Positions 4,694 through 26,686 of a DNA stretch of 64,000 nucleotides are shown here, in pieces. Positions within the stretch are counted from its first letter, which is position 1; each line of letters starts with the position of its first letter. The stretch spans positions 463 through 64,462 of the forward strand of contig CAZIAP010000003.1 in assembly GCA_964537315.1 (NCBI GenBank), read 5' to 3'. The notes beneath the pieces are model-generated. The model did no database searches and was not told where the DNA came from. It saw only the letters and a list, made by a program, of their open reading frames with translations. Origin of the DNA: an uncultured Gammaproteobacteria bacterium. GTDB taxonomy: Bacteria > Patescibacteriota > Microgenomatia > Levybacterales > GWA1-39-11. Both the position numbers and the translations under genes were made by a program.

Positions 4694-6031
4694 ATGGCAA
4701 AGAATTCATCTTTATACGTATGTAATAACTGCGGGTATGAATCAGGCAAGTGGTATGGGAAATGTCCTGAGTGCAGTGCATGGAACTCATTTACTCAAGT
4801 TGCAGCACCTGATAAAAAAGCTGCTCGTTCTGCTCGTGGTCCGGTAGCTGAGCCTGTAAGCATAGGAACTATTAAAAGTGTAGCAGAAAACAGGACGAGT
4901 ACGGGTTTTGGAGAGTTTGATAGAGTTTTAGGCGGGCGTGATCAAAATATGGGAATTGTACCAGGATCTGTCATGCTGCTTTCAGGTGATCCGGGTGTAG
5001 GAAAGTCAACTATAATGCTACAGTTAGGTATTAATCTGGCGAGAGCTGGTAAAAAAGTAGTGTATATCACTGGTGAGGAGTCTGAGAGTCAGGTCAAGAT
5101 GCGATCAGAACGTGTCGAGACTGAAAAAGCACTTGAAAAGCTACCTTTATATATTCTTTCATCTACAGATATTGATGCTGCTCTGGAATCAGCAGAACAG
5201 ACTGTTCCTGATCTCCTTATAATTGACTCCATACAGACTATGGTGTCTACGGAGCTTACAGGATTCGCAGGTTCGATACCACAAATTCGTTATGCAACTT
5301 CCCGTTTGGTCTCATTTGCGAAAAAAAATAATATACCAGTATTTCTAATTGGTCACGTTACAAAAGAGGGGATGGTGGCAGGTCCAATGATTTTATCTCA
5401 CATGGTAGATACAGTACTATATCTTGAAGGAGAAGCTCTTACAGGTACAAGGATTTTACGTACATTTAAAAATAGGTTTGGTGACACTAGTGAAGTGGGA
5501 ATTTTTCTGATGGAAGAAAAAGGGTTAGTTGAGTTATCTGACGCATCATCATTTTTTGTAGATAAAAAAGATGGGGGAGTTCCGGGTTCATGTGTTGCTG
5601 TCGTGATGGAGGGAAGTAGACCATTATTAGTGGAGATTCAGGCACTTGTTGTTCCAAGCACGCTTGCATATCCAAGAAGAGTTGCGAACGGAATTGCCGA
5701 AAAACGGCTTGAAATGCTACTTGCGGTTCTTCAAAAGCATGCAAGGATTCCTGTTGAGCGAATGGATGTATTTGTAAACGTGGTAGGAGGTTTAAAAGTC
5801 CAAGAACCAGCAGTTGATCTTGCGGTTTGTATGGCAATTATCTCAAGTTTTAAGAGCAAAGCACTGTCATCCACTGTGGCAATTGCAGAAGTTGGACTAC
5901 TTGGAGAGTTAAAACACGTGGTAAACTTAGACAAGAGAGTTAAAGAAGCACAGAAACTTGGGTTTAAAAAAGTGCTGTCAGCAAGGGATGCACAATTCTT
6001 GAACAATGTTATAATAAAGAATATGTCATGA
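4694..6031 (+). CDS. radA: DNA repair protein RadA/Sms
   Basis: It has an N-terminal C4 zinc finger 'CNNCGYESGKWYGKCPECSAW', the Walker A 'GDPGVGKST', and a Lon-like C-terminal domain. Length is 445 aa. Confidence 0.9.
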   Translation: MAKNSSLYVCNNCGYESGKWYGKCPECSAWNSFTQVAAPDKKAARSARGPVAEPVSIGTIKSVAENRTSTGFGEFDRVLGGRDQNMGIVPGSVMLLSGDPGVGKSTIMLQLGINLARAGKKVVYITGEESESQVKMRSERVETEKALEKLPLYILSSTDIDAALESAEQTVPDLLIIDSIQTMVSTELTGFAGSIPQIRYATSRLVSFAKKNNIPVFLIGHVTKEGMVAGPMILSHMVDTVLYLEGEALTGTRILRTFKNRFGDTSEVGIFLMEEKGLVELSDASSFFVDKKDGGVPGSCVAVVMEGSRPLLVEIQALVVPSTLAYPRRVANGIAEKRLEMLLAVLQKHARIPVERMDVFVNVVGGLKVQEPAVDLAVCMAIISSFKSKALSSTVAIAEVGLLGELKHVVNLDKRVKEAQKLGFKKVLSARDAQFLNNVIIKNMS

Positions 6032-6852
6032 GTAAAAAAAGTGAATCAAAAGTTAAAAAAACACCGGTAAAGAAGGTGAAAACAGTATCGCAGGATGCAG
6101 TGAAAGAGGCAGTGGAAAAAAACAATCCATTTATGGAAGGAATTTTGTTGCCTCCACGTGTAGTTATGCAGATTGCTGATGAAGTAGCAAAGGTGGTAAC
6201 TGCGCGAATGGGAAGTACTAAAACTACCAGGAAGAAAAAAAAGACTAGTGGCAAAACTGTCGAAAATGCGGTGTTTCTTGACACGTCAGCTATCATTGAT
6301 GGAAGAGTCTTCGATCTCATGCAAATTGGGGCATTTTACGGCAATTTTATACTAGTTGAGGGAGTAATAGATGAGTTAAAAAATATAGCTGACAGCCGGG
6401 ACGATGTGAAGAAGGAGCGCGGGCGACTGGCGATGCAGATGCTTGATAAAGCTAAAAAGAATCGTATTGCCAAGTTCACTATCGTTGAAGATGAAAAACC
6501 TCAGGCGCCGGTAGACGATCGTATTATTGCAACAGCAAAAAAATACAAAGGTCGGATTATCACCTGTGATTTTAATCTTTCTCAGAAAGCTAAAATCAGT
6601 AACGTTCCCTCGATCGATCTTTACGAGATGGCAAACATCCTCAAAACCACGGCTGTTCCAGGCGAGACGTTTAATATAAAACTGATTCAAAAAGGAAAAG
6701 GTGAAAGCCAGGGAGTGGGTTACCTTGAAGATGGGACAATGATCGTGGTTGAACAAGGTGAGACTATGATCGGAGAAACTGTAGATGTGGAAGTTGTACG
6801 GGTTATTCAGACAGATGCAGGAAAGATTTTCTTCGGTAAATTAACGGAGTAG
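6028..6852 (+). CDS. PIN/TRAM domain protein (YacL-like)
   Basis: A PIN domain ('VFLDTSAIIDGR', 'ITCDFNL') is followed by a C-terminal TRAM-like beta domain ('GETVDVEVVRV'). It overlaps radA by 4 nt (ATGA). By established knowledge, radA-yacL adjacency is known from Firmicutes. Confidence 0.7.
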   Translation: MSKKSESKVKKTPVKKVKTVSQDAVKEAVEKNNPFMEGILLPPRVVMQIADEVAKVVTARMGSTKTTRKKKKTSGKTVENAVFLDTSAIIDGRVFDLMQIGAFYGNFILVEGVIDELKNIADSRDDVKKERGRLAMQMLDKAKKNRIAKFTIVEDEKPQAPVDDRIIATAKKYKGRIITCDFNLSQKAKISNVPSIDLYEMANILKTTAVPGETFNIKLIQKGKGESQGVGYLEDGTMIVVEQGETMIGETVDVEVVRVIQTDAGKIFFGKLTE

Positions 6853-11424: not shown

Positions 11425-12221
11425 AGTGCCTCCTCTGGATTATGTAAAATCTCGACTGTTATTGATGTTTCATGAGAGCTTCCCTCAGTAGTGAGTTCTT
11501 CGATCTCAATAAGTTTTGCATCCCTATTTATGCGCAATATCTGATTTGGATTTGCTCGCACAACTATCACAAATGATGCGTTGGGGTTGGTAATATATAC
11601 AGATCTGTCAGGGATAGGTACTACAAGTCTGTCTGTCTTGGGTGAGAGCGTAACGCCATAAGTTTGTGCAAATATATCCAAATCGCTTTGTTCCCAGTAG
11701 CTATATGCGTTAAGAGATTTGTCAAAGACAATATCATCTCCATTATATGAGAGAGTCATGCCCATCCTGCGAATTTTTTGAGGTTGTGCGAAAATAGTGC
11801 GTTGATACACAGTAACTCTATCTTCCTCAATTAAAGCTTTATATCGGGCATTAAGTTTGTCTGTAGTAAAGGTAACCGATGGACTACCTCCTGTGAGATA
11901 TGTTTTTACAGTATGAGCGATGTTTTCAAATTGTGTTTTTTCAAGATTTGTTTCGTACTGTTTGCTCTCAATTTCAGGAACTGAGATAAAACTGCTTCGG
12001 TTGTTTTGGGCATCAACAGTATAATCATTGAACGGTGAGAATCTGTAGTATAGACGTTTATAATCCTGAAATAAGGAGAGTCCGTCAGAGTAAGGTGCAA
12101 TCTGCATTGAACCTACCGCTGAGACCTGAGGATTATTTGGGAGTAATACTCCATAAACTGCTAGTATAAGCAGCACGCAAAAAACTATAAAAGATAATAT
12201 ATTCCTGCCTAATATATTCAT
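11421..12221 (-). CDS. hypothetical membrane-anchored protein
   Basis: It has an N-terminal TM 'ILSFIVFCVLLILAVYGVLL'. There is a 4-nt ATGA overlap with the downstream gene. Confidence 0.5.
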   Translation of the reverse strand: MNILGRNILSFIVFCVLLILAVYGVLLPNNPQVSAVGSMQIAPYSDGLSLFQDYKRLYYRFSPFNDYTVDAQNNRSSFISVPEIESKQYETNLEKTQFENIAHTVKTYLTGGSPSVTFTTDKLNARYKALIEEDRVTVYQRTIFAQPQKIRRMGMTLSYNGDDIVFDKSLNAYSYWEQSDLDIFAQTYGVTLSPKTDRLVVPIPDRSVYITNPNASFVIVVRANPNQILRINRDAKLIEIEELTTEGSSHETSITVEILHNPEEAL

Positions 12222-12223
12222 GG

Positions 12224-12550
12224 TTACTGTTGTGGGAGATCACTCCATACGCCATCCCACGTGCGAACACCTTTTTGCCAAGCACACTCTCTGACTTGCT
12301 GCTCCATAGGCCTGCTTATGGTTTGTCCGGTTGTGGCTGTTGTTGTCTCTTGGCGGTAAGCCATGGCACAGTCTTGTATTGCTTGTAGTTCGAGCGCTCG
12401 TTGATTTTGTGCAAGCATAGTATCAACCCGTTCAAGGGCATTTACTGCACCAAAAATCAGTCCGCCTAAAACGACGGCTATAGCCACAGCAATTAGAATA
12501 TTTTTTATTATTTGCATACTTAAAAAATCGAACATTACAAATCTCACCAC
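12224..12550 (-). CDS. small membrane protein (hypothetical)
   Basis: It has a single TM 'IIKNILIAVAIAVVLGGLIFGAV'. An alternative start lies at 12517 (MQIIKN). It is the first gene of the glycosylation operon. Confidence 0.45.
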   Translation of the reverse strand: MVRFVMFDFLSMQIIKNILIAVAIAVVLGGLIFGAVNALERVDTMLAQNQRALELQAIQDCAMAYRQETTTATTGQTISRPMEQQVRECAWQKGVRTWDGVWSDLPQQ

Positions 12551-12669
12551 CTTTTCTTATCAAAGTACTCAATGTTAATTAGGTGAAGAAAGATTGATGT
12601 AAGAGATTACATCTGATTGAGTATTTAGATAAGACGAGAAACGTAGATTGCAAGCAAAGCTTGTGAGAG

Positions 12670-12710
12670 TTACCCTCTCCGCAAATTGCGGAGAGGGTAA
12701 ATATTGAGGA
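12670..12710 (-). terminator. GC-rich hairpin downstream of paralog P1
   Basis: This is a perfect 12-bp stem 'taccctctccgc' / 'gcggagagggta' with loop 'aaatt'. There is no clear U-tract. Confidence 0.45.
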
Positions 12711-12721
12711 CAATGTCCTCG

Positions 12722-13867
12722 TTACGGATTAAACACTGTACCTTCTAGTTCATCAGCTGACGAAGCGAAGGTAAAGGTGACCTCGTAACCGACCGGACCG
12801 ACGGAACCAATATAAATTGATTCTACGTCATCATCCAGAATTACGAGAGCCTTGCCATCTACACGACAATTGTCACATGTGATAGTTCCATCGTCATGTA
12901 GAGACCATACGCGGATAACCGGGTTCCCGCTGATTTGAACAGCACCGTTGCCATGGATTTCCATGGCAATCGCTGCCTCACCCAGAGGACCTCGTTCATG
13001 CGTAAAGGTAAGGACATTACCATTTACTCGTACGTTACCCTTGGAAGTGGCTGCGCATACAGTGAAGCTCGTGACCTGATACTCAGTGCAGTTTTCTAGG
13101 CTCTTGCCTTGACCATGCTTTGGTGCTTCATTAGAAGGCGGTGGTGGTGGAGTAGTTCCTCCATCATCATCACAACCATCCACATATCGCCACTCAAAGT
13201 AGTGCTGGCCGACATTGCCGAACTGAACCTGGTGCTCAGGCGCGTTGTCTGGAGTATATGTCAAGGCTTGGCGTTCACCAAGCTGTACATATACCTTTTT
13301 CATCACACCATCAACTGGTGCGACTGTTTCCATAACTGGAGAGGAGGCGAGTCCGACCTGTTGTAGTCGTCCAGGCTCACTCATGAACTCAGCGAAGTCT
13401 GATCCCCACGAATATCCCCCATTTCGGAAGACATCCTTGAAGTCTCCATAGGAGAGTGGGTTAACTTGACCCGGGTCACCTGCCACATGAACGTCAGATG
13501 GGGAACATACGACAAAGTCGTTATCCCCAACCTGCATCATGCCGGTAACGAGTTCTGCTACCAGTAGACCGTTCGTTACACGCCAATTAGCGGATTCATC
13601 ATACGAACGATCTTCCATTCTCGTTTTGTCAAAGTACTGGACGGCGCGGACACCGCCTGGTGCTTCAACATAGTCCTCCTGACCAATGAAGCGCGCAGGT
13701 TCATAAACCGGACCCCATCCCAGTTCGTTACTCAACCATTGTTCCCGAAAGTTCGAGTGGTTGAATCTGTCGGGCGTGGGATAGTAGTGATCAGCGAAAG
13801 CAGATGCTGACACGCTGATAACTAGCAAGGCCACGATGGCCAACGCCCCAACAAATTTTGTGCGCAA
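12722..13867 (-). CDS. secreted modular protein, paralog P1 (module A + Pro-rich linker + module B)
   Basis: It has a signal peptide 'RTKFVGALAIVALLVISVSASAFA' and a TTG start with SD 'aaagga'. Module A ('VQYFDKTRMED...VTNGLLVAELVTG...VGLASSP...VQLGERQALTYTPDN...HYFEWRY') is shared with P3. The C-terminal module B ('IYIGSVGPVGY') is shared with P2. Confidence 0.75.
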   Translation of the reverse strand: MRTKFVGALAIVALLVISVSASAFADHYYPTPDRFNHSNFREQWLSNELGWGPVYEPARFIGQEDYVEAPGGVRAVQYFDKTRMEDRSYDESANWRVTNGLLVAELVTGMMQVGDNDFVVCSPSDVHVAGDPGQVNPLSYGDFKDVFRNGGYSWGSDFAEFMSEPGRLQQVGLASSPVMETVAPVDGVMKKVYVQLGERQALTYTPDNAPEHQVQFGNVGQHYFEWRYVDGCDDDGGTTPPPPPSNEAPKHGQGKSLENCTEYQVTSFTVCAATSKGNVRVNGNVLTFTHERGPLGEAAIAMEIHGNGAVQISGNPVIRVWSLHDDGTITCDNCRVDGKALVILDDDVESIYIGSVGPVGYEVTFTFASSADELEGTVFNP

Positions 13868-13902
13868 TTTTTTGTCCTTTCTGCGCTACAAAAAAAATGT
13901 TT

Positions 13903-14102
13903 GGACCAAATGGCCCAAGAGAAAAACAAGTCAATTCACTTATTTTCCTTTCGAGCCTTTCGGTCCTGAATAATTTCTACGTTTCTCGTTTGTTAAGGTA
14001 CCTGAGTAATCAGTAATACATTCATGCAATATGAAGTATTCCTGAAAATCTCATCTTTGATCTCAAACATTTGCTTGAAAGCAAAGATGAAACGAGAAAC
14101 AC
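13903..14102 (-). promoter_or_regulatory. conserved ~200-bp leader/promoter element, copy 1 (upstream of P1)
   Basis: It is near-identical to copies at 14770-14969 and 16515-16656. The terminal inverted repeats are 'acgtttctcgtttg' and 'aaacgagaaacac'. Nested hairpins are 'tcatctttg...caaagatga' and 'ttgcttgaaagcaa'. On the minus strand it reads 'TTAACA-N17-TTATTC'. Confidence 0.55.
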
Positions 14103-14122
14103 AGCTTCACTAGTGTGAGATT

Positions 14123-14153
14123 AGGGTCTCTCCCGAACTGCGGGAGAGACCCT
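14123..14153 (-). terminator. GC-rich hairpin downstream of P2
   Basis: It is a perfect 13-bp stem 'agggtctctcccg' / 'cgggagagaccct' with loop 'aactg'. Confidence 0.45.
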
Positions 14154-14179
14154 ATAAGGTAGCTTACGCTACCAACAGA

Positions 14180-14710
14180 TTAATTCCGTGTCCAGTAATT
14201 CCACGCATATGGAATGGAATCAATGAACTGTGCACCTTCAAAGTCGCTCAGCGACCCAAAGGTGAGAGTGAACTGATGTCCGACCGGACCGACAGACCCA
14301 ATGTAGAATGCACTGGTTCCATGATCCGGCAACTGGATGACGATGTTACCATTTTCGTCTGCTACGTATCGGTCAGCATAGGCATTGTTCAAGTCGGCGT
14401 AAAAGTATACGTCGACTGCTCCGCTGATCCGGATAGCTTCTACGCCACCGGGATATGTCCGTACGATAACAGACATAGACGCTTCACCCATAGGAGCAGG
14501 ATTGTGTGCGAACGTAACGACGTTACCTTCAACACTAACTTCTCCTCTAGAAGGCATAAGACAAACGTTATGACCGCCGATCCACTGAAAGCCTCCACAC
14601 CTGTTCTCCAAAGAAGGAACAGAAGGGGCATTGGCAGATGCAACTGCCGGAATGACGAGCGCCAGGATCACAGCTACGAACGTCACGATGCGAAAATGAA
14701 TCTTGCGCAT
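14180..14710 (-). CDS. secreted protein, paralog P2 (module B only)
   Basis: It has a signal peptide 'IVTFVAVILALVIPAVASA'. 'GNVVTFAHNPAPMGEA' and 'FYIGSVGPVGHQFTLTF' are homologous to the P1 C-terminus. Confidence 0.7.
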   Translation of the reverse strand: MRKIHFRIVTFVAVILALVIPAVASANAPSVPSLENRCGGFQWIGGHNVCLMPSRGEVSVEGNVVTFAHNPAPMGEASMSVIVRTYPGGVEAIRISGAVDVYFYADLNNAYADRYVADENGNIVIQLPDHGTSAFYIGSVGPVGHQFTLTFGSLSDFEGAQFIDSIPYAWNYWTRN

Positions 14711-14769
14711 TGCTTTGTCCTTTCATGCGCTAAGACAATAAATTCATCAGACTAACGTAGTCTGAATAG

Positions 14770-14969
14770 GACCAAGTGGTCCAAGAGAAAAACAAGATTT
14801 TATCCTTATTTCCCTTTCGGACCTCTCGGTCAAAATAAATACTGTGTTTCTCGTTTGTTAATGTACCTGAGTAATCAGGAGTAGTCTTTATTCTATAACA
14901 AAGCACTCCTGAAAATCTCATCTTTGATCTCAAACATTTGCTTGAAAGCAAAGATGAAACGAGAAACGC
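14770..14969 (-). promoter_or_regulatory. conserved leader/promoter element, copy 2 (upstream of P2)
   Basis: It has the same architecture as copy 1. It shares the 'ggaccaagtggtccaagagaaaaacaag' hairpin and the 3' core 'cctgaaaatctcatctttgatctcaaacatttgcttgaaagcaaagatgaaacgagaaacgc'. The minus strand reads 'TTAACA-N17-TTATTT'. Confidence 0.55.
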
Positions 14970-14981
14970 AGGTTATGTATA

Positions 14982-15029
14982 GAGTGGACCCCGCTAAGCG
15001 GGATCCACTCAGTTTGGTAGCTAAGCTAC
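14982..15029 (-). terminator. two tandem hairpins downstream of P3
   Basis: The hairpins are 'gagtggaccccgc taa gcgggatccactc' and 'ggtagc taa gctacc'. Confidence 0.4.
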
Positions 15030-15032
15030 CGA

Positions 15033-16427
15033 TTAGCGAGCATCAATAGTATTGATGTGCTCGCTTCTGTCATACGGTCCCCACCACACAAGAGACTCGT
15101 GAGTGGGAGCAGCAGTGGTGTAATCCACCGCAATTGAGACAACCCCGTCGTTTGGAAGGATGATAGTAATATCACCCATGTCTGATGTTGCCTGACTGAC
15201 AACATTACCGGAGTTAGTCACAACCGTGACCATACTGTTCGGAGCGATCCGAACATTAATGGCTACAGGGCCTGAAGCTCCAGCCAGGAACTGATCGATG
15301 TACTTTGAAGTAGTCAGAACACCCAAGCACCATCTGATGTGGGTATCTGTTCCTCTGTACACGATCTGTCCAGGATTACCATGGTCAGTCCAGTTGCCTC
15401 CCGAATGATTTCCGAGAGCAAGTGTGACAAACCAACTATCTGCGCCTCCCCAGTCAGGAGCCTTGAACAGGTGTTCATTGAACACGCGGTGAGTCCACGT
15501 ATTCTGCTTGAACTCTTCGATTACTTTGCTGTCCATCTTGTCCAACTTTCCTGGTTCAGGAAAGTAGCAAGGCTCTGGAGCAGACTTAACCGGTGGCTCT
15601 GGCTTGGGTTCATGAACCGGCGGTTCAGGTTTTGGCTTGTGAACCGGTGGTGTAGGATCTGGACCGTGTCCAGGATCTTCAAGCTTACCGGCACACCCGT
15701 CTTTCCCATACCTCCATTCAAAGTAGTGGGCACCGACGTTGCCCCACTCAACCTGCCAACCGTGAGGGTTGTCAGGAGTGTATGTAAGAGCACGGCGCTC
15801 ACCCAACTGTACGAGCACCTTCTTTATGGTGCCGTTAACTTTGGCGTCAGTCCACCAGGCGGGAGAAGAGGCAAGGCCAACTTTATATGTGGCGTTGTCT
15901 TTTGACATGAACTTCTGAAACTCAGGAGCCCAGTCATATCCACCTGGTTTGATATCGTTGTAGAACTTCGCGTAGGTCAAGGCATCATGACCTTGATCCA
16001 TATCACCTGCGACAGGCATATCAGACGGTCTGCATTCAATGAACGCATCATCGCCAATTTGCATGCGGCCTGTGACCAGCTCTACAACAAGTAATCCGTT
16101 AGTGACAGCCCAGTCACCCTTAGAGCGGTAACTATTATCCTCCATACGGGACTTGTCGAAGTATTGGACTGTTCGGAAGCCTTTCGGAGCTTCTTTGTAG
16201 GGTTCTGATTTGAAGTCATATGCGACTTTCAGTGCAGGACCCCACGTCCAAGACTTGGCTTCTTTTCCGTCAATGACGGATTGATCATCCTTCTCCCAGG
16301 TATGCTGAAAGTTCTGATGGTGAAAGCTCGGCTTTTGATAATCCGATGAGGCAAGTGCCACCATCGGAATGAGTAGAGCGGCAATCATCGTTACCAGAAC
16401 GATGATTCCCAATCGTTGTCTGCGCAT
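15033..16427 (-). CDS. secreted modular protein, paralog P3 (module A + Pro/Lys-rich linker + module C)
   Basis: It has a signal peptide 'LGIIVLVTMIAALLIPMVALA'. Module A ('VQYFDKSRMED...VTNGLLVVELVTG') is shared with P1. The linker is 'PTPPVHKPKPEPPVHEPKPEPPVKSAPEP'. C-terminal module C ('WTHRVFNEHLFKAPDWGGADSWFVTLALGNHSGG...HESLVWWGPYDRSEHINTIDAR') is shared with P4. Confidence 0.75.
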   Translation of the reverse strand: MRRQRLGIIVLVTMIAALLIPMVALASSDYQKPSFHHQNFQHTWEKDDQSVIDGKEAKSWTWGPALKVAYDFKSEPYKEAPKGFRTVQYFDKSRMEDNSYRSKGDWAVTNGLLVVELVTGRMQIGDDAFIECRPSDMPVAGDMDQGHDALTYAKFYNDIKPGGYDWAPEFQKFMSKDNATYKVGLASSPAWWTDAKVNGTIKKVLVQLGERRALTYTPDNPHGWQVEWGNVGAHYFEWRYGKDGCAGKLEDPGHGPDPTPPVHKPKPEPPVHEPKPEPPVKSAPEPCYFPEPGKLDKMDSKVIEEFKQNTWTHRVFNEHLFKAPDWGGADSWFVTLALGNHSGGNWTDHGNPGQIVYRGTDTHIRWCLGVLTTSKYIDQFLAGASGPVAINVRIAPNSMVTVVTNSGNVVSQATSDMGDITIILPNDGVVSIAVDYTTAAPTHESLVWWGPYDRSEHINTIDAR

Positions 16428-16514
16428 TAAAATTTCCTTTCATTGCGCACAATACGGTTTGGACACATCGTCCGTCAAATAGACAAGCTAATATCTACTT
16501 AACGGACGACATAT

Positions 16515-16656
16515 CTTATTTCCGTATATTTCTACGTTTCTCGTTTGTTAAAGTGCTGAGTAATCAGTAACACATCCATGCAATATGAAGTATTCCTGAA
16601 AATCTCATCTTTGATCTCAAACATTTGCTTGAAAGCAAAGATGAAACGAGAAACGC
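16515..16656 (-). promoter_or_regulatory. conserved leader/promoter element, copy 3 (upstream of P3; lacks the first ~60 bp of the unit)
   Basis: 'tttctacgtttctcgtttgttaaagtgctgagtaatcagtaacacatccatgcaatatgaagtattcctgaaaatctcatctttgatctcaaacatttgcttgaaagcaaagatgaaacgagaaacgc' is ~95% identical to copy 1. Confidence 0.55.
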
Positions 16657-16741
16657 ATATCTCTATTCACTGACCGTGCTTCGTATCAAATGTTGTCGGT
16701 TCAAATACCGACGATTTAATACATGACAATCATGAGTAGAG

Positions 16742-16776
16742 TATCCAAGGAGCCCCACAGAGCGGGACTCCTTGGA
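16742..16776 (-). terminator. GC-rich hairpin downstream of P4
   Basis: It has a 10-bp stem 'atccaaggag' / 'ctccttggat' with a 15-nt loop. Confidence 0.4.
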
Positions 16777-16786
16777 TTAGATGACT

Positions 16787-17833
16787 CTAGCGAGCATCAA
16801 TAGTATTGATGTTCTCGCTTCTGTCATACGGTCCCCACCACACAAGACTTTCGTGAGTGGGAGCAGCAGTGGTGTAATCCACTGTAATTGAGACAACTCC
16901 ATCATCCGGTAGGATAATGGTGATGTCACCTGCATCCGAGGTTACCTGAGAATGAGCTCCTGAAGGTCCATTCACTGTAACCACTGAGTTCGGAGCGATC
17001 CGAACATTAATGGCTACAGGACCTGAAGCTCCAGCCAGGAACTGATCCACATACTGTGAGCTGGTAAGAACCCCCAAGCACCACTGAATGTGAGTGCTTG
17101 TGCCTCTGTATACAATCTGACCAGGATTGCCATGATCAGTCCATGCACCGCCTGAGTGATTGCCCAGGGCAAGTGTCACGAACCAACTATCTGCGCCTCC
17201 CCAATCAGGAGCCTTGAACAGATGAGGATTGAACACTCTGTGGAACCACTGTCCGTAAGATGCCAACTCAATCTCTGTTTTCGGCATGTCGTCAAGATTC
17301 CCCGAAGCAGGGAACTGGCAGCTTTGTCCTGTCTGCTGTACCGGTTCAGGCATCGCTGGTTCTTGATCAGGTTCATCGTCGACGATTGCAACATAAGTGC
17401 AAGCGTCTTCAACGTCTCTGTCAAGCTCGTAACCATCTCTGACTTCGCAGTCATCGTGGTTGAACTCATCAGGTTCGTCGTCGACGATTGCAACATAAGT
17501 GCAAGCGTCTTCAACGTCTCTGTCAAGCTCGTAACCATCTCTGACTTCACAGTCATCGTGGTTGAACTCATCAGGTTCAGGCGTGCGTGTAGGATCATCT
17601 CGTACAGGAGAAGGACTAGGCTCTTCGTCATCATTGACGTCAATGCCTATACATTCTTCTTCCTCTACTGAGCGATCAATGTCAATTACTCCGACACAGT
17701 CGGAGAGATCGAATTCAACATCGTCCTCACCGTCTGCATTGACGCTACAGGCTGAAAGCATGAGCATCATAGCGATGAAAACGGCAAGGAAGGGGAACGT
17801 CTTTTGGTTCATCGTAGATCCCTTCTTGCTCAT
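16787..17833 (-). CDS. lipoprotein, paralog P4 (acidic tandem-repeat linker + module C)
   Basis: It has a lipobox 'MLMLSAC'. Acidic Cys-containing 34-aa units 'DEPDEFNHDDCEVRDGYELDRDVEDACTYVAIVD' occur twice. The C-terminal ~155 aa are ~80% identical to the P3 C-terminus. Confidence 0.75.
   Translation of the reverse strand: MSKKGSTMNQKTFPFLAVFIAMMLMLSACSVNADGEDDVEFDLSDCVGVIDIDRSVEEEECIGIDVNDDEEPSPSPVRDDPTRTPEPDEFNHDDCEVRDGYELDRDVEDACTYVAIVDDEPDEFNHDDCEVRDGYELDRDVEDACTYVAIVDDEPDQEPAMPEPVQQTGQSCQFPASGNLDDMPKTEIELASYGQWFHRVFNPHLFKAPDWGGADSWFVTLALGNHSGGAWTDHGNPGQIVYRGTSTHIQWCLGVLTSSQYVDQFLAGASGPVAINVRIAPNSVVTVNGPSGAHSQVTSDAGDITIILPDDGVVSITVDYTTAAPTHESLVWWGPYDRSENINTIDAR
17371..17574. repeat. 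2 x 102-bp near-perfect tandem direct repeat inside P4
   Basis: 'gttcatcgtcgacgattgcaacataagtgcaagcgtcttcaacgtctctgtcaagctcgtaaccatctctgacttc(g/a)cagtcatcgtggttgaactcatcag' occurs twice. The copies differ by 2 nt. Confidence 0.85.
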
Positions 17834-17850
17834 ATGAGCTAGGCTATGAC

Positions 17851-19182
17851 TTATCGGCGTCGACGTTGTCTGTTGATAGTTCGGACCTGAGACTTTTCTT
17901 CCTCAACCTCTTCGTTCTCTGATACCTCAGTATCTCGACTACGCATGAGGATAAGGATTCCCAGAGTCAAAAGTCCGAATACAACGGCTGCTGCTACAGG
18001 AGGGAACCAAAGGTAAGCTTCGCGACCGAAGTCCATCTCGACGTCCGCTATAAACAAATAGAGTCCGATGAGAAAGAAGACTACGGCTGCGATGACTGCT
18101 GCCGCACCTGCAATACTTAGCAAGTTGCTAGCAATCACACTTTTGGTTGCTTGACGCACCTCCCGAATAGCTGTTGAAGCCATTCGTTTGGCTTCTTTCA
18201 ATCCCTCATCTAGCTGTCCTATATGGACTGTATGCTGATTAAGGGTACGTTGTTGGTCTTCTTGAACTCGATCAGTTTCTTGAAATTTCTCTGCCGTTGT
18301 TTGAAGAAGACTGCGTATGTCGCCGATTTCCCGTTCATGCCGAGTAATCGACGTGTCGTGCTTATCCACTTGTTCGAAGCGAGTTTTGAATTCGTTTCTC
18401 ATAGAGCGGATTTCATCTAACACCGGATCTGTTTCTATAGGTGCTGGAGTGATATACACTTGAACGCCGATTCTAGCCACATCCCCTTGACTGTCTTTTA
18501 CTTCCACGACAAATGCATGCCGTCCAGTTTCTAACCCCTTTGTGGAGCCAGAGATATGACCGTTCTGGTAGAGGTGAAGACCAGGCGGAATTTGTTCCGC
18601 ACTCCAATGGTACGGAGGAGTTCCACCTTCCACCTCAAGAGTTCTATTGAGGAACTCTCCTTGACGAATCTCAACGACATTATCCCCAAATACTCTCAAT
18701 GGTTCGGGTTCTTCAGCAATAACGACAGGAGTAGTTTCTTCTGTCATTTCTTCCCCCTCATCTTCTTCAGGACCACCAACAGTATAGGTAGTGGCCTTAA
18801 TTTCCGGTTCTTCCGCCATTTCTTCCTCCTCTTTAACTTCCTCAGGTTCAGGAAGTGGTATGGGTTCAATGGTTTTCCGTACAGGAATCGGTTGATAATC
18901 CGCTACAGCTTCCTTATCTGGCTTGAGGTTGATGAATATGTTTATTCTATTCCTCAAGATGGACTTTGTACCTTTCGTACTAAGTCCCAGCTTTGCTGCA
19001 GCGGTGCGTATCGGTCGATAAGTGAGATCAGGATCATTGATATAATCCTGAAGTTCAGCCCATGTCATAGGTGGTTGAACGCGTATAGTCGTAGGCTTTC
19101 TTGTTGCCTTTCTACTACGAACTATTGCACTAACGATGCCGATTCCAAGTAGGAGTGAAATGATCTTTTTAGCTTTCTCCAA
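17851..19182 (-). CDS. membrane-anchored surface protein (SAP-like motif, acidic linker, Ig-like module, coiled coil, C-terminal TM hairpin)
   Basis: It has an N-terminal TM 'IISLLLGIGIVSAIV' and a SAP-like motif 'AAKLGLSTKGTKSILRNRI'. An acidic linker 'EPEEVKEEEEMAEEPE' is present. There is a He_PIG/cadherin-like Ig motif 'GGTPPYHWSAEQIPPGLHLYQNGHISGST'. Two C-terminal TM helices are present. Domain names are inference. Confidence 0.6.
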   Translation of the reverse strand: MEKAKKIISLLLGIGIVSAIVRSRKATRKPTTIRVQPPMTWAELQDYINDPDLTYRPIRTAAAKLGLSTKGTKSILRNRINIFINLKPDKEAVADYQPIPVRKTIEPIPLPEPEEVKEEEEMAEEPEIKATTYTVGGPEEDEGEEMTEETTPVVIAEEPEPLRVFGDNVVEIRQGEFLNRTLEVEGGTPPYHWSAEQIPPGLHLYQNGHISGSTKGLETGRHAFVVEVKDSQGDVARIGVQVYITPAPIETDPVLDEIRSMRNEFKTRFEQVDKHDTSITRHEREIGDIRSLLQTTAEKFQETDRVQEDQQRTLNQHTVHIGQLDEGLKEAKRMASTAIREVRQATKSVIASNLLSIAGAAAVIAAVVFFLIGLYLFIADVEMDFGREAYLWFPPVAAAVVFGLLTLGILILMRSRDTEVSENEEVEEEKSQVRTINRQRRRR

Positions 19183-19299
19183 CTGATTTTTCCCTTCGTT
19201 TGGTTAAGGTTAATTCCGACTCTTGGCAGAGTGCATCAGAAGATGCGCTTTTCCAAGTACCGGAGTTGGCAGCCTGAGAGAGTTTTCCGACTGCCAAAT

Positions 19300-19345
19300 C
19301 CGGCACCTGATGCCAAGAATATTTTTGCGTTTCTCGTTTGTTAAG
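19300..19345 (-). promoter_or_regulatory. partial copy of the paralog promoter motif upstream of the 17851-19182 gene
   Basis: The plus-strand 'gcgtttctcgtttgttaagg' on the minus strand reads 'TTAACAAACGAGAAACGC-...-TATTCT'. This is the same -35-like box and spacer as copies 1-3. Confidence 0.4.
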
Positions 19346-19558
19346 GAGCAATTGCGTAGCAAGTTGCGACGCATCCGCCTCTGGCGGAAAAGCTCAATTT
19401 ATGTAATGACTCCCCGTTCTCTGCGCAATGCAGGTACGAGCATCAAACATAAAATTCCAAGACTTTATGAGTCTAGGGAGAGTAGCTTTTGTATTTGCGG
19501 TTGGACGTGCGAGTAGGTATTTTAAGCAACTCTCTCTATACTCATGAGTACGTTTAGG

Positions 19559-20251
19559 TTAGCGGGTAGCCTTACGGTTCAGGAAGAGACCAAGCGCTCC
19601 TGCCGGAATGAGTGCTGCAAGTGAAAGAATACCAGCTCCTGTCTGAGGAGTTTGTTTTAGTGGTGGAGTTTGCTGAACAACTGGTCCTCCATCTTTTTGT
19701 GGCTGATTTTTTTCAATACATAGCTGTGTAGAGTCTGTAGCAGAGTGACCGTTCTGAGTAGCACGCACGTTATTAACAACACAAGTTACTGATCTGTCAG
19801 TAGGCAGATTATTACTTTCTGCAGCTTTAACAGTGATTGTTCCTGTATGTGACTGTCCTGGATTAAGTCTTTCAAGAGAGTAGGTAACTTCTTTTCCATT
19901 ATTTCTTCCTCCACTTACCCATGTAAGGTGGTCTGGAAGAGTATCGACTACATTGATATTTTCAATAGTGGTATCTCCGGTATTTTTGATGATAATACGA
20001 AAAGCAATTGTGGCACCCGGAGCAAATTTTTCGTCATTTGCACCAAGGTTATTTACAAATTCTCCGCCTTTAGTAGGTTTTTGAACCTGTTTATCAATAT
20101 TGAAAGAGATTCTCTCATCGCAGATTTCTCCACCGTAGTATCCTCCACCGTAAATAACTTCACATTTAGATCCTCCTGCATTTACCACAGAAGCGGCTCC
20201 TGCGAAGAGTGCAGTTGTTACAAAAAAGAGTGATGTACGTTTAAAATTCAT
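19559..20251 (-). CDS. cell-surface protein with C-terminal LPXTG-like sorting signal
   Basis: It has a signal peptide 'MNFKRTSLFFVTTALFAGAASVVNA' and a DUF11-like beta domain. The C-terminus 'TPQTG' is followed by the hydrophobic 'AGILSLAALIPAGALGLFL' and a basic tail 'NRKATR'. The track ORF starts at 20308. Confidence 0.6.
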   Translation of the reverse strand: MNFKRTSLFFVTTALFAGAASVVNAGGSKCEVIYGGGYYGGEICDERISFNIDKQVQKPTKGGEFVNNLGANDEKFAPGATIAFRIIIKNTGDTTIENINVVDTLPDHLTWVSGGRNNGKEVTYSLERLNPGQSHTGTITVKAAESNNLPTDRSVTCVVNNVRATQNGHSATDSTQLCIEKNQPQKDGGPVVQQTPPLKQTPQTGAGILSLAALIPAGALGLFLNRKATR

Positions 20252-20711: not shown

Positions 20712-21941
20712 ATGCCTAGAATAGTAAAAGAAAAAGAAGAAAAACCAGAAGATAAAGTATCTGAGGTTTCTGATGTGGCTGTCGAAGAGACTCCAACCGG
20801 TAATGGTAAAGGGTACGAATCTCGCATGGAAGACAAAGCATCCGAAGTGGTATCAGGTATTTTAGATATTCAGCGCGAAGGTCATGGTTTCTTGCGCCCC
20901 AAATTCCGTCCTTCTGATAAAGATATCTATATTTCCTCATCTCAAATTCGTCGTTTCTGGCTTCGCCCAGGAGATAATGTAAAAGGAGTGGGACGGCCAC
21001 CAAAGGATAATGAGAGGTACTATGGTCTACTCAAGATCGAAGAAGTAAATGGAAAACAGCCTGAAGTTTCGACTAAAAGACCTTATTTTGAAGACTTAAC
21101 TCCTATTTATCCGATAGAGCAGATTAAGCTCTCAACAAAGAAATTCCCAATCTCAACAAGAGTGATAGATATCGCGGCTCCAATTGGCTTTGGTCAGCGT
21201 GGTATGATTGTTTCCCCTCCAAAAGCTGGAAAAACGACTATCCTAAAAGATCTTGCTCATGGTGTATCTGAAAATTTTCCTAAGGCACATCTTATGGCTG
21301 TTTTGATTGGAGAGCGACCTGAAGAGGTTACAGATATCTCTCGCAGTGTTAAAGGAGAGGTAGTTGCTTCAAATTTTGATGAATCTCCAGAAACACAGAC
21401 CCGTATTGCAGAAATTGCTCTAGATAGAGCAAAGAGATTGGTTGAGATGGGAGAAGATGTTGTAATCTTGCTCGATTCAATTACCAGGCTAGCTCGTGCA
21501 TATAACTTATCTATTGATCCGTCAGGACGTACGCTCACAGGAGGTTTTGACCCTGCAGCACTTTATCCTGCTAAGCGCATTTTTGGTGCAGCAAGAAAAT
21601 GTGAAGAGGGTGGATCTTTGACCATTATTGGAACAGCATTGGTAGATACCGGATCACGCATGGATGATCTTATTTACGAAGAATTCAAAGGTACCGGAAA
21701 CATGGAGTTGCACCTAGACAGAAGACTTGCTGAGAGACGAATCTTCCCAGCAATCAATGTAGAACGATCAGGCACGCGCCAAGAGCACTTGCTCATTCCA
21801 GAAAAAGATCTGCAGAAAGTAATGACTATGCGTCGTATGATGGACATCTTGGGTCCGGATGAGCGTACTGATGTCCTAATTGAACGTCTATCCAAAACTG
21901 AGTCTAACCGTGAGTTCCTCGATAATCTTGGTAAGGATTAG
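20712..21941 (+). CDS. rho: transcription termination factor Rho (with low-complexity K/E-rich N-terminus)
   Basis: It has the RNA-binding CSD 'GFLRPKFRPSDKDIYISSSQIRRFWLRPGDNVKG' and the Walker A 'PPKAGKTTILKDLAHG'. 'DSITRLARAYN' is also present. Confidence 0.9.
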   Translation: MPRIVKEKEEKPEDKVSEVSDVAVEETPTGNGKGYESRMEDKASEVVSGILDIQREGHGFLRPKFRPSDKDIYISSSQIRRFWLRPGDNVKGVGRPPKDNERYYGLLKIEEVNGKQPEVSTKRPYFEDLTPIYPIEQIKLSTKKFPISTRVIDIAAPIGFGQRGMIVSPPKAGKTTILKDLAHGVSENFPKAHLMAVLIGERPEEVTDISRSVKGEVVASNFDESPETQTRIAEIALDRAKRLVEMGEDVVILLDSITRLARAYNLSIDPSGRTLTGGFDPAALYPAKRIFGAARKCEEGGSLTIIGTALVDTGSRMDDLIYEEFKGTGNMELHLDRRLAERRIFPAINVERSGTRQEHLLIPEKDLQKVMTMRRMMDILGPDERTDVLIERLSKTESNREFLDNLGKD

Positions 21942-23320: not shown

Positions 23321-23716
23321 TTACGCAGAATCTTTCTGACGGGCAGTGTCATAAACCTTTCTGATAATTTTTACTCCATCTGTCTCTCCGAAGTTAATGA
23401 GAAAACCTAACTTATAAGAAGAATTCTTTAGATAATACCAAAACTGAGAGATGTCTTCTTTGTGAATAAATGGTTTTGCTTTAAGTTCGAGTATGATAGA
23501 GTTGTTTACCACTATGTCGGGAGTATACACTCCTACTTTAACTCCTAAATGGTATATTGCAAGTTGCTTCTCTCTTTCAATAGATAATTTTTGACGTTTT
23601 AGCTCTTCAGCCAATGCTCTCTGATATATGGACTCTTTTTGAGTATTGTGAAATTTCTTGTAAATGATAAAGCATGAACCTCTAATACTATATGACTCAT
23701 GAGGATATAGGAGCAT
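23321..23716 (-). CDS. GxxExxY family protein
   Basis: 'IRGSCFIIYKKFHNTQKESIYQRALAEEL' and 'NFGETDGVKIIRKV' are typical of the GxxExxY (PD-(D/E)xK-like) family. Length is 131 aa. Confidence 0.6.
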   Translation of the reverse strand: MLLYPHESYSIRGSCFIIYKKFHNTQKESIYQRALAEELKRQKLSIEREKQLAIYHLGVKVGVYTPDIVVNNSIILELKAKPFIHKEDISQFWYYLKNSSYKLGFLINFGETDGVKIIRKVYDTARQKDSA

Positions 23717-25999: not shown

Positions 26000-26001
26000 A
26001 T

Positions 26002-26037
26002 AGGGGTTGACCCCCTTTTAGGGGTTTCAACCCCTAA
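26002..26037. repeat. two tandem REP-like GC hairpins adjacent to the Y1 transposase gene
   Basis: The hairpins are 'aggggttgaccccct' and 'ttaggggtttcaacccctaa'. They share an 'agggg...cccct' stem. Confidence 0.6.
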
Positions 26038-26686
26038 ATATGTCTTTCTCAATAATTTGAGGCTTAACTTTAAGAAAAGATTCTTTGTGTGATTGGGTAT
26101 CAGCAACAAAATCCTTATACTGACTTGGAGAAGAGAAAAAGGAAAGTATTAATCTTTTGTTACAAAAGCTATCCTGTGAGCGATCCAGGTACTCACGAAA
26201 GCTTGACCATTGATAGTTTTCTGCCACAATGCCCTGTGTAAACTCAGGGTGGTAATGAATAAAGCGTGAAAGCTCAAGAATCTGATTGTCGTTATCAAGT
26301 GCAGCGGCTCGATATCTACCATGCATGAGTCGTCCGAAACGCTTATACTTTTTATTGTAATACTCTGTGTAGGCATTATTTACTTGTTTCATAAAGCGTG
26401 GGATTGAGTCTTTGTCACTTTGGCGTAGTAAGAGATGAAAATGATCTGGAAGCAAACAATAACCGAATGCATCAATTTCCTCAGACATATTTTTAATTTG
26501 GAGCCTGAATGGTAAGGTCGGATAGGCATTTAAAACTTGCTTGAGCGGTTTAAGGTATATATAAATATAAAATAGAAAAGTCCTATAATCGTCTTCATCC
26601 TGAAACATGTGAGTATCAACACTTTTATTATATATATGGTAAGTTACTCCTTCAGAAAAATTTCTAACGATGTATTTAGAGGGCAT
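26027..26686 (-). mobile_element. IS200/IS605-family Y1 (HuH) transposase, REP-associated (RAYT)-like
   Basis: It has the HuH motif 'DHFHLLL' and a downstream 'YHP...Y' region. Its ~220-aa length is typical of Y1 transposases. It is next to REP-like hairpins. Confidence 0.55.

Follow-up and report, generated by a model that had tools for sequence, protein, structure and literature searches.

What is the role of an intergenic unit that recurs almost unchanged between genes whose products diverge widely? This question is raised by a 64-kb stretch of bacterial DNA (the window, by which we mean the whole stretch analyzed), in which a paralog locus at 12.7-19.2 kb comprises, according to the list of open reading frames (ORFs), five co-oriented genes, all on the minus strand. 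They encode a membrane/Ig-domain protein of 443 amino acids (aa) and secreted proteins of 348, 464, 176 and 381 aa. Three near-identical intergenic units are found between these genes, together with a fourth promoter-side copy and a fifth half-site (12634-12647), all of them on the minus, i.e., the gene strand. The original prediction, made from the same DNA, had read the unit as a duplicated promoter with a regulatory RNA in the 5' untranslated region (UTR), as a shared operator, or as a mobile unit resembling a miniature inverted-repeat transposable element (MITE). The evidence compiled here points in another direction. The inverted repeats of the unit, referred to as arms below, bracket the genes, and we consider it an even matter whether they form a kilobase-range RNA helix which ties the 5' UTR of each mRNA to its 3' end, for end protection or for processing. 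Contig stretches recovered in the searches for relatives carry locus identifiers from L001 onward.

Complementary arms around each gene

The three copies of the unit were described as more than 90% identical over their core, and the value is indeed 96-99% over 70 nt, as compared with 37-75% in the proteins encoded downstream. A 40-nt block, TCATCTTTGATCTCAAACATTTGCTTGAAAGCAAAGATGA, is identical at 14051-14090, 14918-14957 and 16605-16644, with 0 chance matches expected. With at most one mismatch allowed, the arm motif AAACGAGAAAC has nine matches in the 64 kb against 1.3 expected for the whole window; eight of them fall inside 12.6-19.4 kb, and seven of these eight are exact. The inverted repeats of the unit are perfect over 11 nt and reach 13-16 nt with extensions. 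Other elements of the earlier description also hold, namely the 9-bp outer stem with an inner hairpin (better drawn, on the sense strand, as UUUCAAGC/GUUUGAGA with two G.U pairs), the fourth partial copy, which had been placed at 19326-19345 and is found at 19326-19344, and the GC hairpin behind each gene, which is confirmed at four sites and is nowhere followed by a U-run. The fifth arm, located 3' of the last paralog, had escaped notice.

Read along the coding strand, with P denoting a 5' arm and D a 3' arm, the sites follow the order P4 - genes - D3 - unit - P3 - gene - D2 - unit - P2 - gene - D1 - unit - P1 - gene - D'. If the arms are paired across the genes, each of the eight sites finds a partner, in four helices of 14, 15, 16 and 14 bp, whereas pairing across the 100-nt units yields three pairs and leaves two orphans (19326-19339 and 12634-12647). 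Each transcription unit is bracketed by a conserved box and a 5' arm upstream, and by a complementary 3' arm past the GC hairpin. Where the inner arm ends vary in sequence, they too match across the genes: P2, which pairs with D1 over 16 bp, ends in ACAG, and this is matched only by D1 (CUGU), beyond the 176-aa gene. At the 381-aa gene the inner helix end reads GTAGA/TCTAC, and in the L072 orthologue it reads ACAG/CTGT, both arms having changed. The assignment of P3 is ambiguous, as it can form 15 bp with D2 (14957-14971, including one G.U) or 14 perfect nucleotides with D' (12634-12647).

The anatomy shown here is that of four expression cassettes in tandem, which encode fast-evolving secreted proteins. 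On the minus strand, each cassette begins with the invariant box G-Y-W-C-N-UUAA(C), a 5' arm of 13-16 nt, an A-rich linker and a long leader hairpin, and continues with a hairpin that presents the ribosome-binding site (RBS) in its loop, one or two ORFs, the GC hairpin, the complementary 3' arm and a hairpin with a short U-run. The 200-bp unit is the seam between tandem cassettes, made up of 3' arm, N hairpin, M hairpin, box and next 5' arm, followed by the leader; it looks like a unit bounded by inverted repeats because all four cassettes use almost one arm sequence and a 3' arm lies about 100 nt from the next 5' arm. The inverted repeats reported to bound the unit are therefore present, 97-100 nt apart, but they primarily bracket genes, as they do in single-cassette relatives that have no such unit. 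That the unit was duplicated together with the genes was foreseen correctly.

Within the seam and the leaders, hairpins persist while their sequences change. The M hairpin differs in sequence in c2 and L068 and is formed in each, and in the L068 orthologue the N hairpin has a different inner stem sequence with three G.U pairs. Each leader carries one long hairpin 2-14 nt past the arm (7-14 nt in the window, with z of -6 to -9.7), which differs in sequence from copy to copy. In a second hairpin, the loop contains the RBS and the stem the start codon, and local folding of the leader leaves the 5' arm unpaired. The start-codon hairpin follows the pattern GCGCA(U)...AAAGGA...(A/U)UGCGC and was seen at window positions 13856-13893, 14700-14736 and 16419-16451 (minus strand), as well as in L068, L072, L113 and L069 (5860-5885). 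In L072, its stem shifts with an extra codon, which suggests that structure is conserved here rather than sequence.

Related loci and co-variation of the arms

Orthologous loci with the same order of sites were recovered from three related populations with one to several cassettes (L065-L071; L072-L075 with L113/L114; L112). In comparison with L072, the unit is 97% identical over 93 nt and the flanking genes are 72% identical at the DNA level. For a gene whose protein is 51% identical, the 3' UTR is 88.5% identical. In syntenic metagenome loci, the same layout of box and arm, gene, and second arm occurs with unrelated arms (AAACGAGAAACGYAG, TAGGCATAACAGGG, CAAGGCAATAGGG, CAATTTGGGTTTAC, GTATGTTGGGA, GTACGTTGTCC). 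Single-cassette relatives that lack AAACGAGAAAC have other perfect repeats at the same two positions, i.e., TAGGCATAACAGGG(A) in L069, L076 and L117, CAAGGCAATAGGG in L115 and CAATTTGGGTTTAC in L118, all perfectly paired, while L095 and L109 retain the arm type of the window. In every case the 5' arm starts 0-2 nt past the box, and the box itself, G-Y-W-C-N-TTAA(C), is invariant in all 16 aligned cassettes.

Different arms can also coexist in one genome. Two extra small genes of L069 have the mutually non-matching arms GTATGTTGGGA and GTACGTTGTCC, and a divergent 329-aa gene in L118 has the arm TCGAGAAACGCAG, which brings the mutually non-matching arm pairs per genome to three in L069 and two in L118. 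These bracketed genes are located at 5767-6408 and 6583-7164 of L069 and at 2802-4435 of L118 (minus strand). Over 18 cassettes, the bracket helices comprise 10-16 bp, mostly 13-16 (30 in L112), and span 735-2668 nt; three more bracketed cassettes were found by a combined search for box and partner.

Co-variation was assessed in an alignment of 16 cassettes representing four arm types, two further arm types flanking other genes of L069. In this alignment, 84% of the cells are paired, as compared with 35-45% when the partner is slid, both sides have changed in 13 of the 16 pair columns, and none of 500 shuffles reached the observed values, all of which have to be read with an alignment register that was taken from the best complementary seed and hence favors structure. 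An independent control gave a partner of at least 13 nt within 4 kb for 13 of 34 boxes and for 23 of 7882 random positions, an enrichment of about 130-fold. The bracketing layout is ancestral and is present in relatives with a single cassette and without the intergenic unit, and the expansion of the paralogs is explained by duplication of whole cassettes, with two transcription units in L068 and four in the window.

Further structured elements accompany the cassettes: in the metagenome relatives, co-variation is seen in a hairpin that lies about 200 nt upstream of the box, and some relatives have structured hairpin insertions of 60-130 nt between the arm and the next conserved block. The metagenome contigs were scanned with an 18-mer of the window, which gave 35 matches, mostly at chance level and including about 12 real relatives. 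ORF-free stretches of 0.8 to more than 2 kb surround the box in L079, L089, L093, L095, L097, L084, L105 and L109 (beside a match to CYTTAACAAACGAGAAAC); they hold co-varying hairpins and conserved blocks such as AGCAGAAAAATTTATTCTCCATA, and gave no Rfam match. In L089, inspection by eye revealed two copies of the module 850 nt apart with an apparent small reverse-strand gene between them.

A separate scan of genome contigs for exact GTTTCTCGTTT-N85-115-AAACGAGAAAC returned 64 loci (L001-L064; e.g., L009 5881-6011 and L034 6158-6288) from Acidobacteriota, Chitinophagaceae, Verrucomicrobiota, Planctomycetota, Nitrospira, Thermomicrobiales and Peribacteria. These are inverted heptamer arrays, (GTTTCTC)n...(GAGAAAC)n, which occupy short intergenic gaps, in many cases 5-25 nt away from the end of an ORF. 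Divergent genes flank only 4 of the 64, which suggests that they are 3'-end elements. The arrays are unrelated to the unit of the window, and none of the 64 loci is a relative of the window.

Proposed RNA pairing and its alternatives

Several observations bear on the question of whether the arms act in RNA or in DNA. Those given first, together with the leader hairpins, the co-varying upstream hairpin and the structured insertions described above, argue for RNA. In L069, one 3' arm begins right after the stop codon, and the 3' arms precede a hairpin with a U-run (4 or 6 U); in the lineage of the window the 3' arm abuts the N hairpin, which is followed by GAUUUUC; and in L076, L117, L095 and L109 it lies about 40 nt ahead of the next co-directional gene. 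The unit folds at -46 to -53 kcal/mol on the sense strand and at -34 to -45 kcal/mol on the antisense strand, so that the sense strand is favored by 8-13 kcal/mol, and the G.U pairs in the hairpins flanking the arms work on the sense strand only. Between the genes of the array there is no terminator made of a hairpin and a U-run, except for terminator-like sites inside two leaders, and a long primary transcript from the promoter of the upstream DUF11 gene is therefore possible. The promoter-like geometry TTAACA-N17/18-TWTWY is present in the copies of the window, as first described, but only about a third of the related cassettes retain a -10 element at this spacing: none passed the filter in window c1 and c3, L068 c1 and c2, L117, L076, L069, L095, L079, L084, L097, L107 or either copy in L089; L072 and L112 were judged by eye only. 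The reading of the unit as a duplicated promoter with a 5'-UTR RNA holds in its second part, given that the downstream half is a structured 5' leader, and finds less support in the first, the promoter geometry being poorly kept.

Known RNA classes offer no match. With Rfam covariance models, only 23S and 5S rRNA reached the gathering score in the window, and nothing credible appeared in the locus or the related loci at E values up to 5; ARAGORN found no tRNA and no transfer-messenger RNA, which the conserved upstream region might have been, and a full-text literature search for the motif strings returned primers only. The following candidates were considered and rejected: a hammerhead or other ribozyme three-way junction (core motifs absent by inspection, no Rfam match), integron attC sites (the RYYYAAC/GTTRRRY core sites do not fit and no integrase was found), IS200/IS605 ends (no matching end architecture), target sites of a diversity-generating retroelement (no reverse transcriptase or template repeat seen), and a box for an extracytoplasmic function (ECF) sigma factor or sigma-54 (unfitting spacings).

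In the explanation that we favor, each cassette would give rise, directly or by cleavage, to an mRNA in which the 5' and 3' arms are paired. The helix would have its inner side beside the long leader hairpin and its outer side against the terminator-like hairpin, such that both ends of the message would be buried in one stacked rod and shielded from exonucleases. Alternatively, the A/U-rich linkers may be exposed to cleavage at a defined site, and the mature ends would then be protected by the leader hairpin and the GC hairpin; the latter suits the role of a 3' stabilizer better than that of a terminator, because the GC hairpins have no U-runs. The helix could also mark the sites at which single messages are released from a longer transcript. 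With end protection as with such marking, surface proteins encoded within a cell-envelope operon could be expressed at high levels that are set separately. Since an alternative partner of the arm behind the last paralog is the ribosome-binding region of the following gene, the helix might set downstream-gene expression, too. Any single downstream role of the pairing, e.g., protection or cutting, is less probable than the pairing itself. A broader proposal, to which we give somewhat less than even credence, is that the cassettes represent an undescribed class, defined by the G-Y-W-C-N-UUAA(C) box and a freely evolving 'address' of 13-16 nt that would pair with the far end of the message. Each surface-protein mRNA would then form a closed loop of its own, which could serve to protect its ends, to recycle ribosomes or to excise it precisely from an operon transcript, and paralog arrays would be built by duplicating whole cassettes.

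A number of findings weigh against pairing at the RNA level. TTAACA matches the -35 consensus at five of six positions, and the length of the arm equals that of a promoter spacer; a -10 element lies 16-18 nt past TTAACA in window c4 and c2, L109 and L118, and L113, outside the scan, fits by eye. The start predicted in L118 coincides exactly with the foot of the leader helix, and if transcription starts downstream of the 5' arm, this arm lies outside the RNA. In the window, a 3' arm and the 5' arm that follows it are also predicted to pair locally with high stability, which may compete with the bracketing helix. The helices are almost wholly Watson-Crick, with one internal G.U only, which is unusual for an evolving RNA helix. 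With 13-16 bp, they are short for classical RNase III cleavage and must form over 0.7-2.7 kb; a duplex of about two helical turns (at least 20 bp), as in RNase III processing stems, is not reached, and about 30 bp result only if stacking on the N hairpin is assumed. Finally, L112 starts and ends with a perfect inverted repeat of at least 30 nt that includes the box, which looks like a DNA rearrangement.

This last feature leads to the strongest of the rival explanations, a DNA inversion switch underlying phase variation, which we regard as unlikely. The arms would be recombination sites that flip the whole cassette or the 100-nt unit, and inversion would part the box, with its -35-like TTAACA, from the -10 element and leader, turning the surface-protein gene off. 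Perfect repeats of 13-16 bp do flank surface-protein genes of a tandem paralog family, the arm sits exactly at the position of the 17-nt spacer after TTAACA and is followed by a usable -10 in several cassettes, the first 30 nt of L112, with the box, return as an exact reverse complement at its end, as expected of a flipped neighbor unit, and switches of similar size occur in the leaders of cell-wall protein genes of Clostridioides difficile (PMC5914908). However, Pfam and NCBIfam searches of the window ORFs recognized no tyrosine or serine recombinase apart from a Y1 protein resembling REP-associated tyrosine transposases (RAYT; REP, repetitive extragenic palindromic), a result that covers most of the window (excluding the 6954-aa ORF, a Rho-like ORF at 20712-21941, and ORFs below 120 aa outside the locus) and is compatible with a distant recombinase gene. 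In the assemblies, one orientation is found at all loci recovered for the three closest species groups (L065-L068, L070-L071, L072-L075, L113-L114, L118-L120). A sequence-specific recombinase is difficult to square with arms that turn over completely between lineages while the box stays, and with the absence of the box from the 3' arm; a correctly spaced -10 is missing from about two thirds of the scanned cassettes, neither strand of the unit contains a complete sigma-70-like promoter, and the 3' arms are positioned precisely between stop codon and terminator hairpin. Less probable again is a local intergenic RNA element, in which a 3' arm and the next 5' arm close a three-way junction of about 125 nt with the N and M hairpins and act as an intercistronic processing site or as an excised small RNA, the bracketing of genes in the window being a mere by-product. 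The fold of this junction speaks for it (-46 to -53 kcal/mol, z -5.9 to -8.5; in L068 -73 kcal/mol, z -8.2), as do the N and M hairpins, which hold their structure while the sequence changes, and the 97% conservation of the unit relative to L072. It would leave the arms at 19326-19339 and 12634-12647 without partners, though, single-cassette relatives keep the arms without such a unit, and the variable inner arm ends match across genes rather than units, as with the 5' arm ending in ACAG and CUGU past the 176-aa gene.

Two proposals remain. A duplicated sigma-70 promoter with operators, at which a regulator would bind AAACGAGAAAC at the promoter and at an auxiliary site and loop the DNA, could account for an 11-mer that is identical at seven of eight window sites and overlaps the promoter-like TTAACA-N17 site, and for the same 18-mer in several metagenome loci. 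It is nonetheless very improbable: arms are unrelated in L069, L076, L117, L115 and L118 with pairing kept, the orientation is strictly fixed (5' site forward, 3' site reverse), the loss of 1 nt between TTAAC and the motif can be tolerated, and no regulator gene was recognized in the locus. Since the sequence changes freely if both arms change together, the arms are not a fixed operator, and the shared operator first suggested has to be given up, the arm sequence being wholly replaced between lineages while complementarity is kept. The MITE-like unit fares no better, and a mobile element of any kind, be it a MITE or a REP doublet (REPIN) moved by the RAYT-like transposase at 26027-26686, is largely refuted. 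Such an element would explain terminal inverted repeats about 100 nt apart that enclose hairpins, the presence of a RAYT-like gene about 7 kb from the nearest arm and about 9 kb from the nearest full unit, and a Y1_Tnp gene near the locus in L115/L116. Against this, there are no target-site duplications and the flanks differ, no copies occur elsewhere in the 64 kb (all lie within 12.6-19.4 kb), the copies occupy orthologous positions in the relatives, the palindrome beside the transposase-like gene is unrelated to the unit, and the arms co-vary with their gene-flanking partners.

Genomic setting and comparison with known systems

The features of the locus are compiled in the table below.

Table. 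Cassette features of the paralog locus, with window positions (c, cassette or unit; P, 5' arm; D, 3' arm)
Feature	Position	Strand	Evidence
First bracketed transcription unit (443-aa membrane/Ig-domain protein and 348-aa secreted paralog)	16787-19182	-	ORFs
464-aa secreted paralog	15033-16427	-	ORF, homology search
176-aa secreted paralog	14180-14710	-	ORF
381-aa secreted paralog	12722-13867	-	ORF
Box GCTCCTTAAC of first cassette (443-aa and 348-aa genes)	19340-19349	-	Box invariant in 16 aligned cassettes
5' arm P4 AAACGAGAAACGCA	19326-19339	-	14 nt perfect complement of 16644-16657, 2668 nt downstream on coding strand
GC-rich hairpin after 348-aa gene, no U-run	16745-16775	-	Sequence
3' arm D3 TGCGTTTCTCGTTT, partner of P4, also bounds unit c3	16644-16657	-	Complementarity
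N hairpin of unit c3 (40-nt identical block), then GAUUUUC; terminator-like	16605-16644	-	Fold
M hairpin of unit c3	16564-16599	-	Fold
Box GCACTTTAAC and 5' arm P3 AAACGAGAAACGTAG of 464-aa cassette	16532-16556	-	Complementarity
Leader of 464-aa gene: long 5' hairpin, then hairpin with RBS loop and start-codon stem	16419-16527	-	Fold -52.4 kcal/mol, z -9.7
GC-rich hairpin after 464-aa gene	14982-15010	-	Sequence
Unit c2 (whole)	14841-14971	-	Repeat, fold, complementarity
Parts of unit c2	D2 14957-14971; N hairpin 14918-14957; M hairpin 14875-14912; box 14857-14866; P2 14841-14856	-	
Leader of 176-aa gene: long hairpin, second hairpin, RBS hairpin	14700-14831	-	Fold z -6.4
GC-rich hairpin after 176-aa gene	14122-14154	-	Inverted repeat
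Unit c1 (whole)	13976-14105	-	Repeat, fold, complementarity
Parts of unit c1	D1 14090-14105; N hairpin 14051-14090; M hairpin 14010-14045; box 13992-14001; P1 13976-13989	-	
Leader of 381-aa gene: long hairpin then U-run, then RBS hairpin	13856-13966	-	Fold z -7.7; terminator-like hit
GC-rich hairpin after 381-aa gene	12670-12700	-	Inverted repeat
3' arm D' TCTACGTTTCTCGT, pairs with P1 over 14 bp	12634-12647	-	Complementarity

The four secreted proteins form a mosaic of shared domains, and their identity of 37-75% is limited to the domains they have in common. Pfam recognized He_PIG in the 443-aa protein only, and searches of Pfam, NCBIfam and PDB sequences assigned the paralogs to no family. 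Within the gene of the 348-aa paralog, window positions 17366-17569 hold an in-frame tandem duplication of 102 nt (98% identical), encoding an acidic, Cys-containing module of 34 aa. Upstream of the locus and on the same strand lies a DUF11/CLIPPER gene with a sortase-type C-terminus, which has a canonical promoter, TTGACA-17-TTATAC, and the organism thus uses such promoters. Downstream follow ORFs of 108 and 266 aa, a polytopic membrane protein of 620 aa and two glycosyltransferases. The closest named homologue is found in a Candidatus Levybacteria genome, and Thermomicrobiales homologues are more distant; the source bacterium probably belongs to the candidate phyla radiation.

The window has additional features of its own. 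The paralog locus forms a G+C island (window 12000-20000), with a G+C content of 0.45-0.48 as compared with 0.37-0.39 in both flanks. Two giant ORFs on the minus strand encode 6954 aa (37375-58239) and 2783 aa (28431-36782), the latter without a match in Pfam. The IS200-like Y1 transposase at 26027-26686 (219 aa, minus strand) is nearest to REP-associated tyrosine transposases, with a score under the family cut-off; a palindrome at about 26000-26035 adjoins its gene, a PD-(D/E)XK gene is located at 23321-23716, and in L115/L116 a Y1_Tnp gene is found near the syntenic locus.

Pairing between the two ends of a bacterial message has precedents, and in its proposed mode of action the locus comes closest to hok mRNA, icaR and the stems around rRNAs. 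In hok mRNA of the hok/sok toxin-antitoxin system, the extreme 5' region pairs with the 3' end through the fold-back inhibition (fbi) element, an interaction that is supported by co-variation and stabilizes the message; hok mRNAs are about 400 nt long and encode a toxin. The cassettes of the window resemble this case in a co-varying 5'-3' pairing, which is predicted here from sequence, but they span 0.7-2.7 kb, encode secreted structural proteins, carry a conserved box beside the 5' arm and are arranged in tandem. The 3' UTR of icaR in Staphylococcus aureus pairs with the Shine-Dalgarno region, blocks translation and recruits RNase III. It shares with the pairing proposed for the window the intramolecular contact between the UTRs of a bacterial mRNA, while the 5' arm of the window excludes the RBS, being located about 100-200 nt upstream. 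The precursor stems that flank 16S, 23S and 5S rRNA comprise at least 20 bp, are imperfect and are cut by RNase III or Mini-III. In these, too, complementary segments bracket a long RNA and the sequence turns over between species with the pairing kept, whereas the helices of the window are shorter (13-16 bp), nearly perfect and placed around protein-coding cistrons. The window contains such a case in its 5S rRNA (1110-1222), which is bracketed by a 25-nt inverted repeat (1094-1118/1213-1237, 80% complementary), presumably a precursor processing stem. From all three systems, the window differs in span, gene class, the adjacent box and the presence of several genes per genome with non-matching arms.

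Among DNA-level systems, the mpl genes of Mycoplasma penetrans are a tandem family in which each gene has its own invertible switch. Invertible promoter/leader switches are also found at cwpV and flgB of C. difficile (PMC5914908). As in these cases, short inverted repeats flank a segment of 100-200 bp upstream of surface-protein genes; such switches are defined by the occurrence of both orientations and by a recombinase, however, and neither was seen for the window in the assemblies and the scanned ORFs. In addition, the ancestral repeat pair of the window flanks a whole gene, and one of its arms has no conserved box. REPINs with their RAYT and MITEs are similar in size (about 120 nt), terminal inverted repeats and internal hairpins, and a RAYT-like gene is present in the window, but the unit is undispersed, has no target duplication, occurs in syntenic copies and has arms that pair across genes.

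If the arms pair in RNA, the locus would represent a kilobase-range 5'-3' pairing of mRNAs that is phylogenetically well supported, systematic for one gene class and associated with an adjacent box; we know of no comparable bacterial case, the literature not having been surveyed for one. Should the arms instead be inversion sites, the locus would, as far as is known to us, be the first phase-variation system in the group. Almost nothing is known of gene control in bacteria of the candidate phyla radiation, the probable host group. The orthogonal arm pairs would be ready-made for tests of mRNA circularization. If it holds true, the proposed pairing would explain how surface proteins diversify inside a constant expression frame, the flanks being 90-97% conserved and the proteins about 50% identical.

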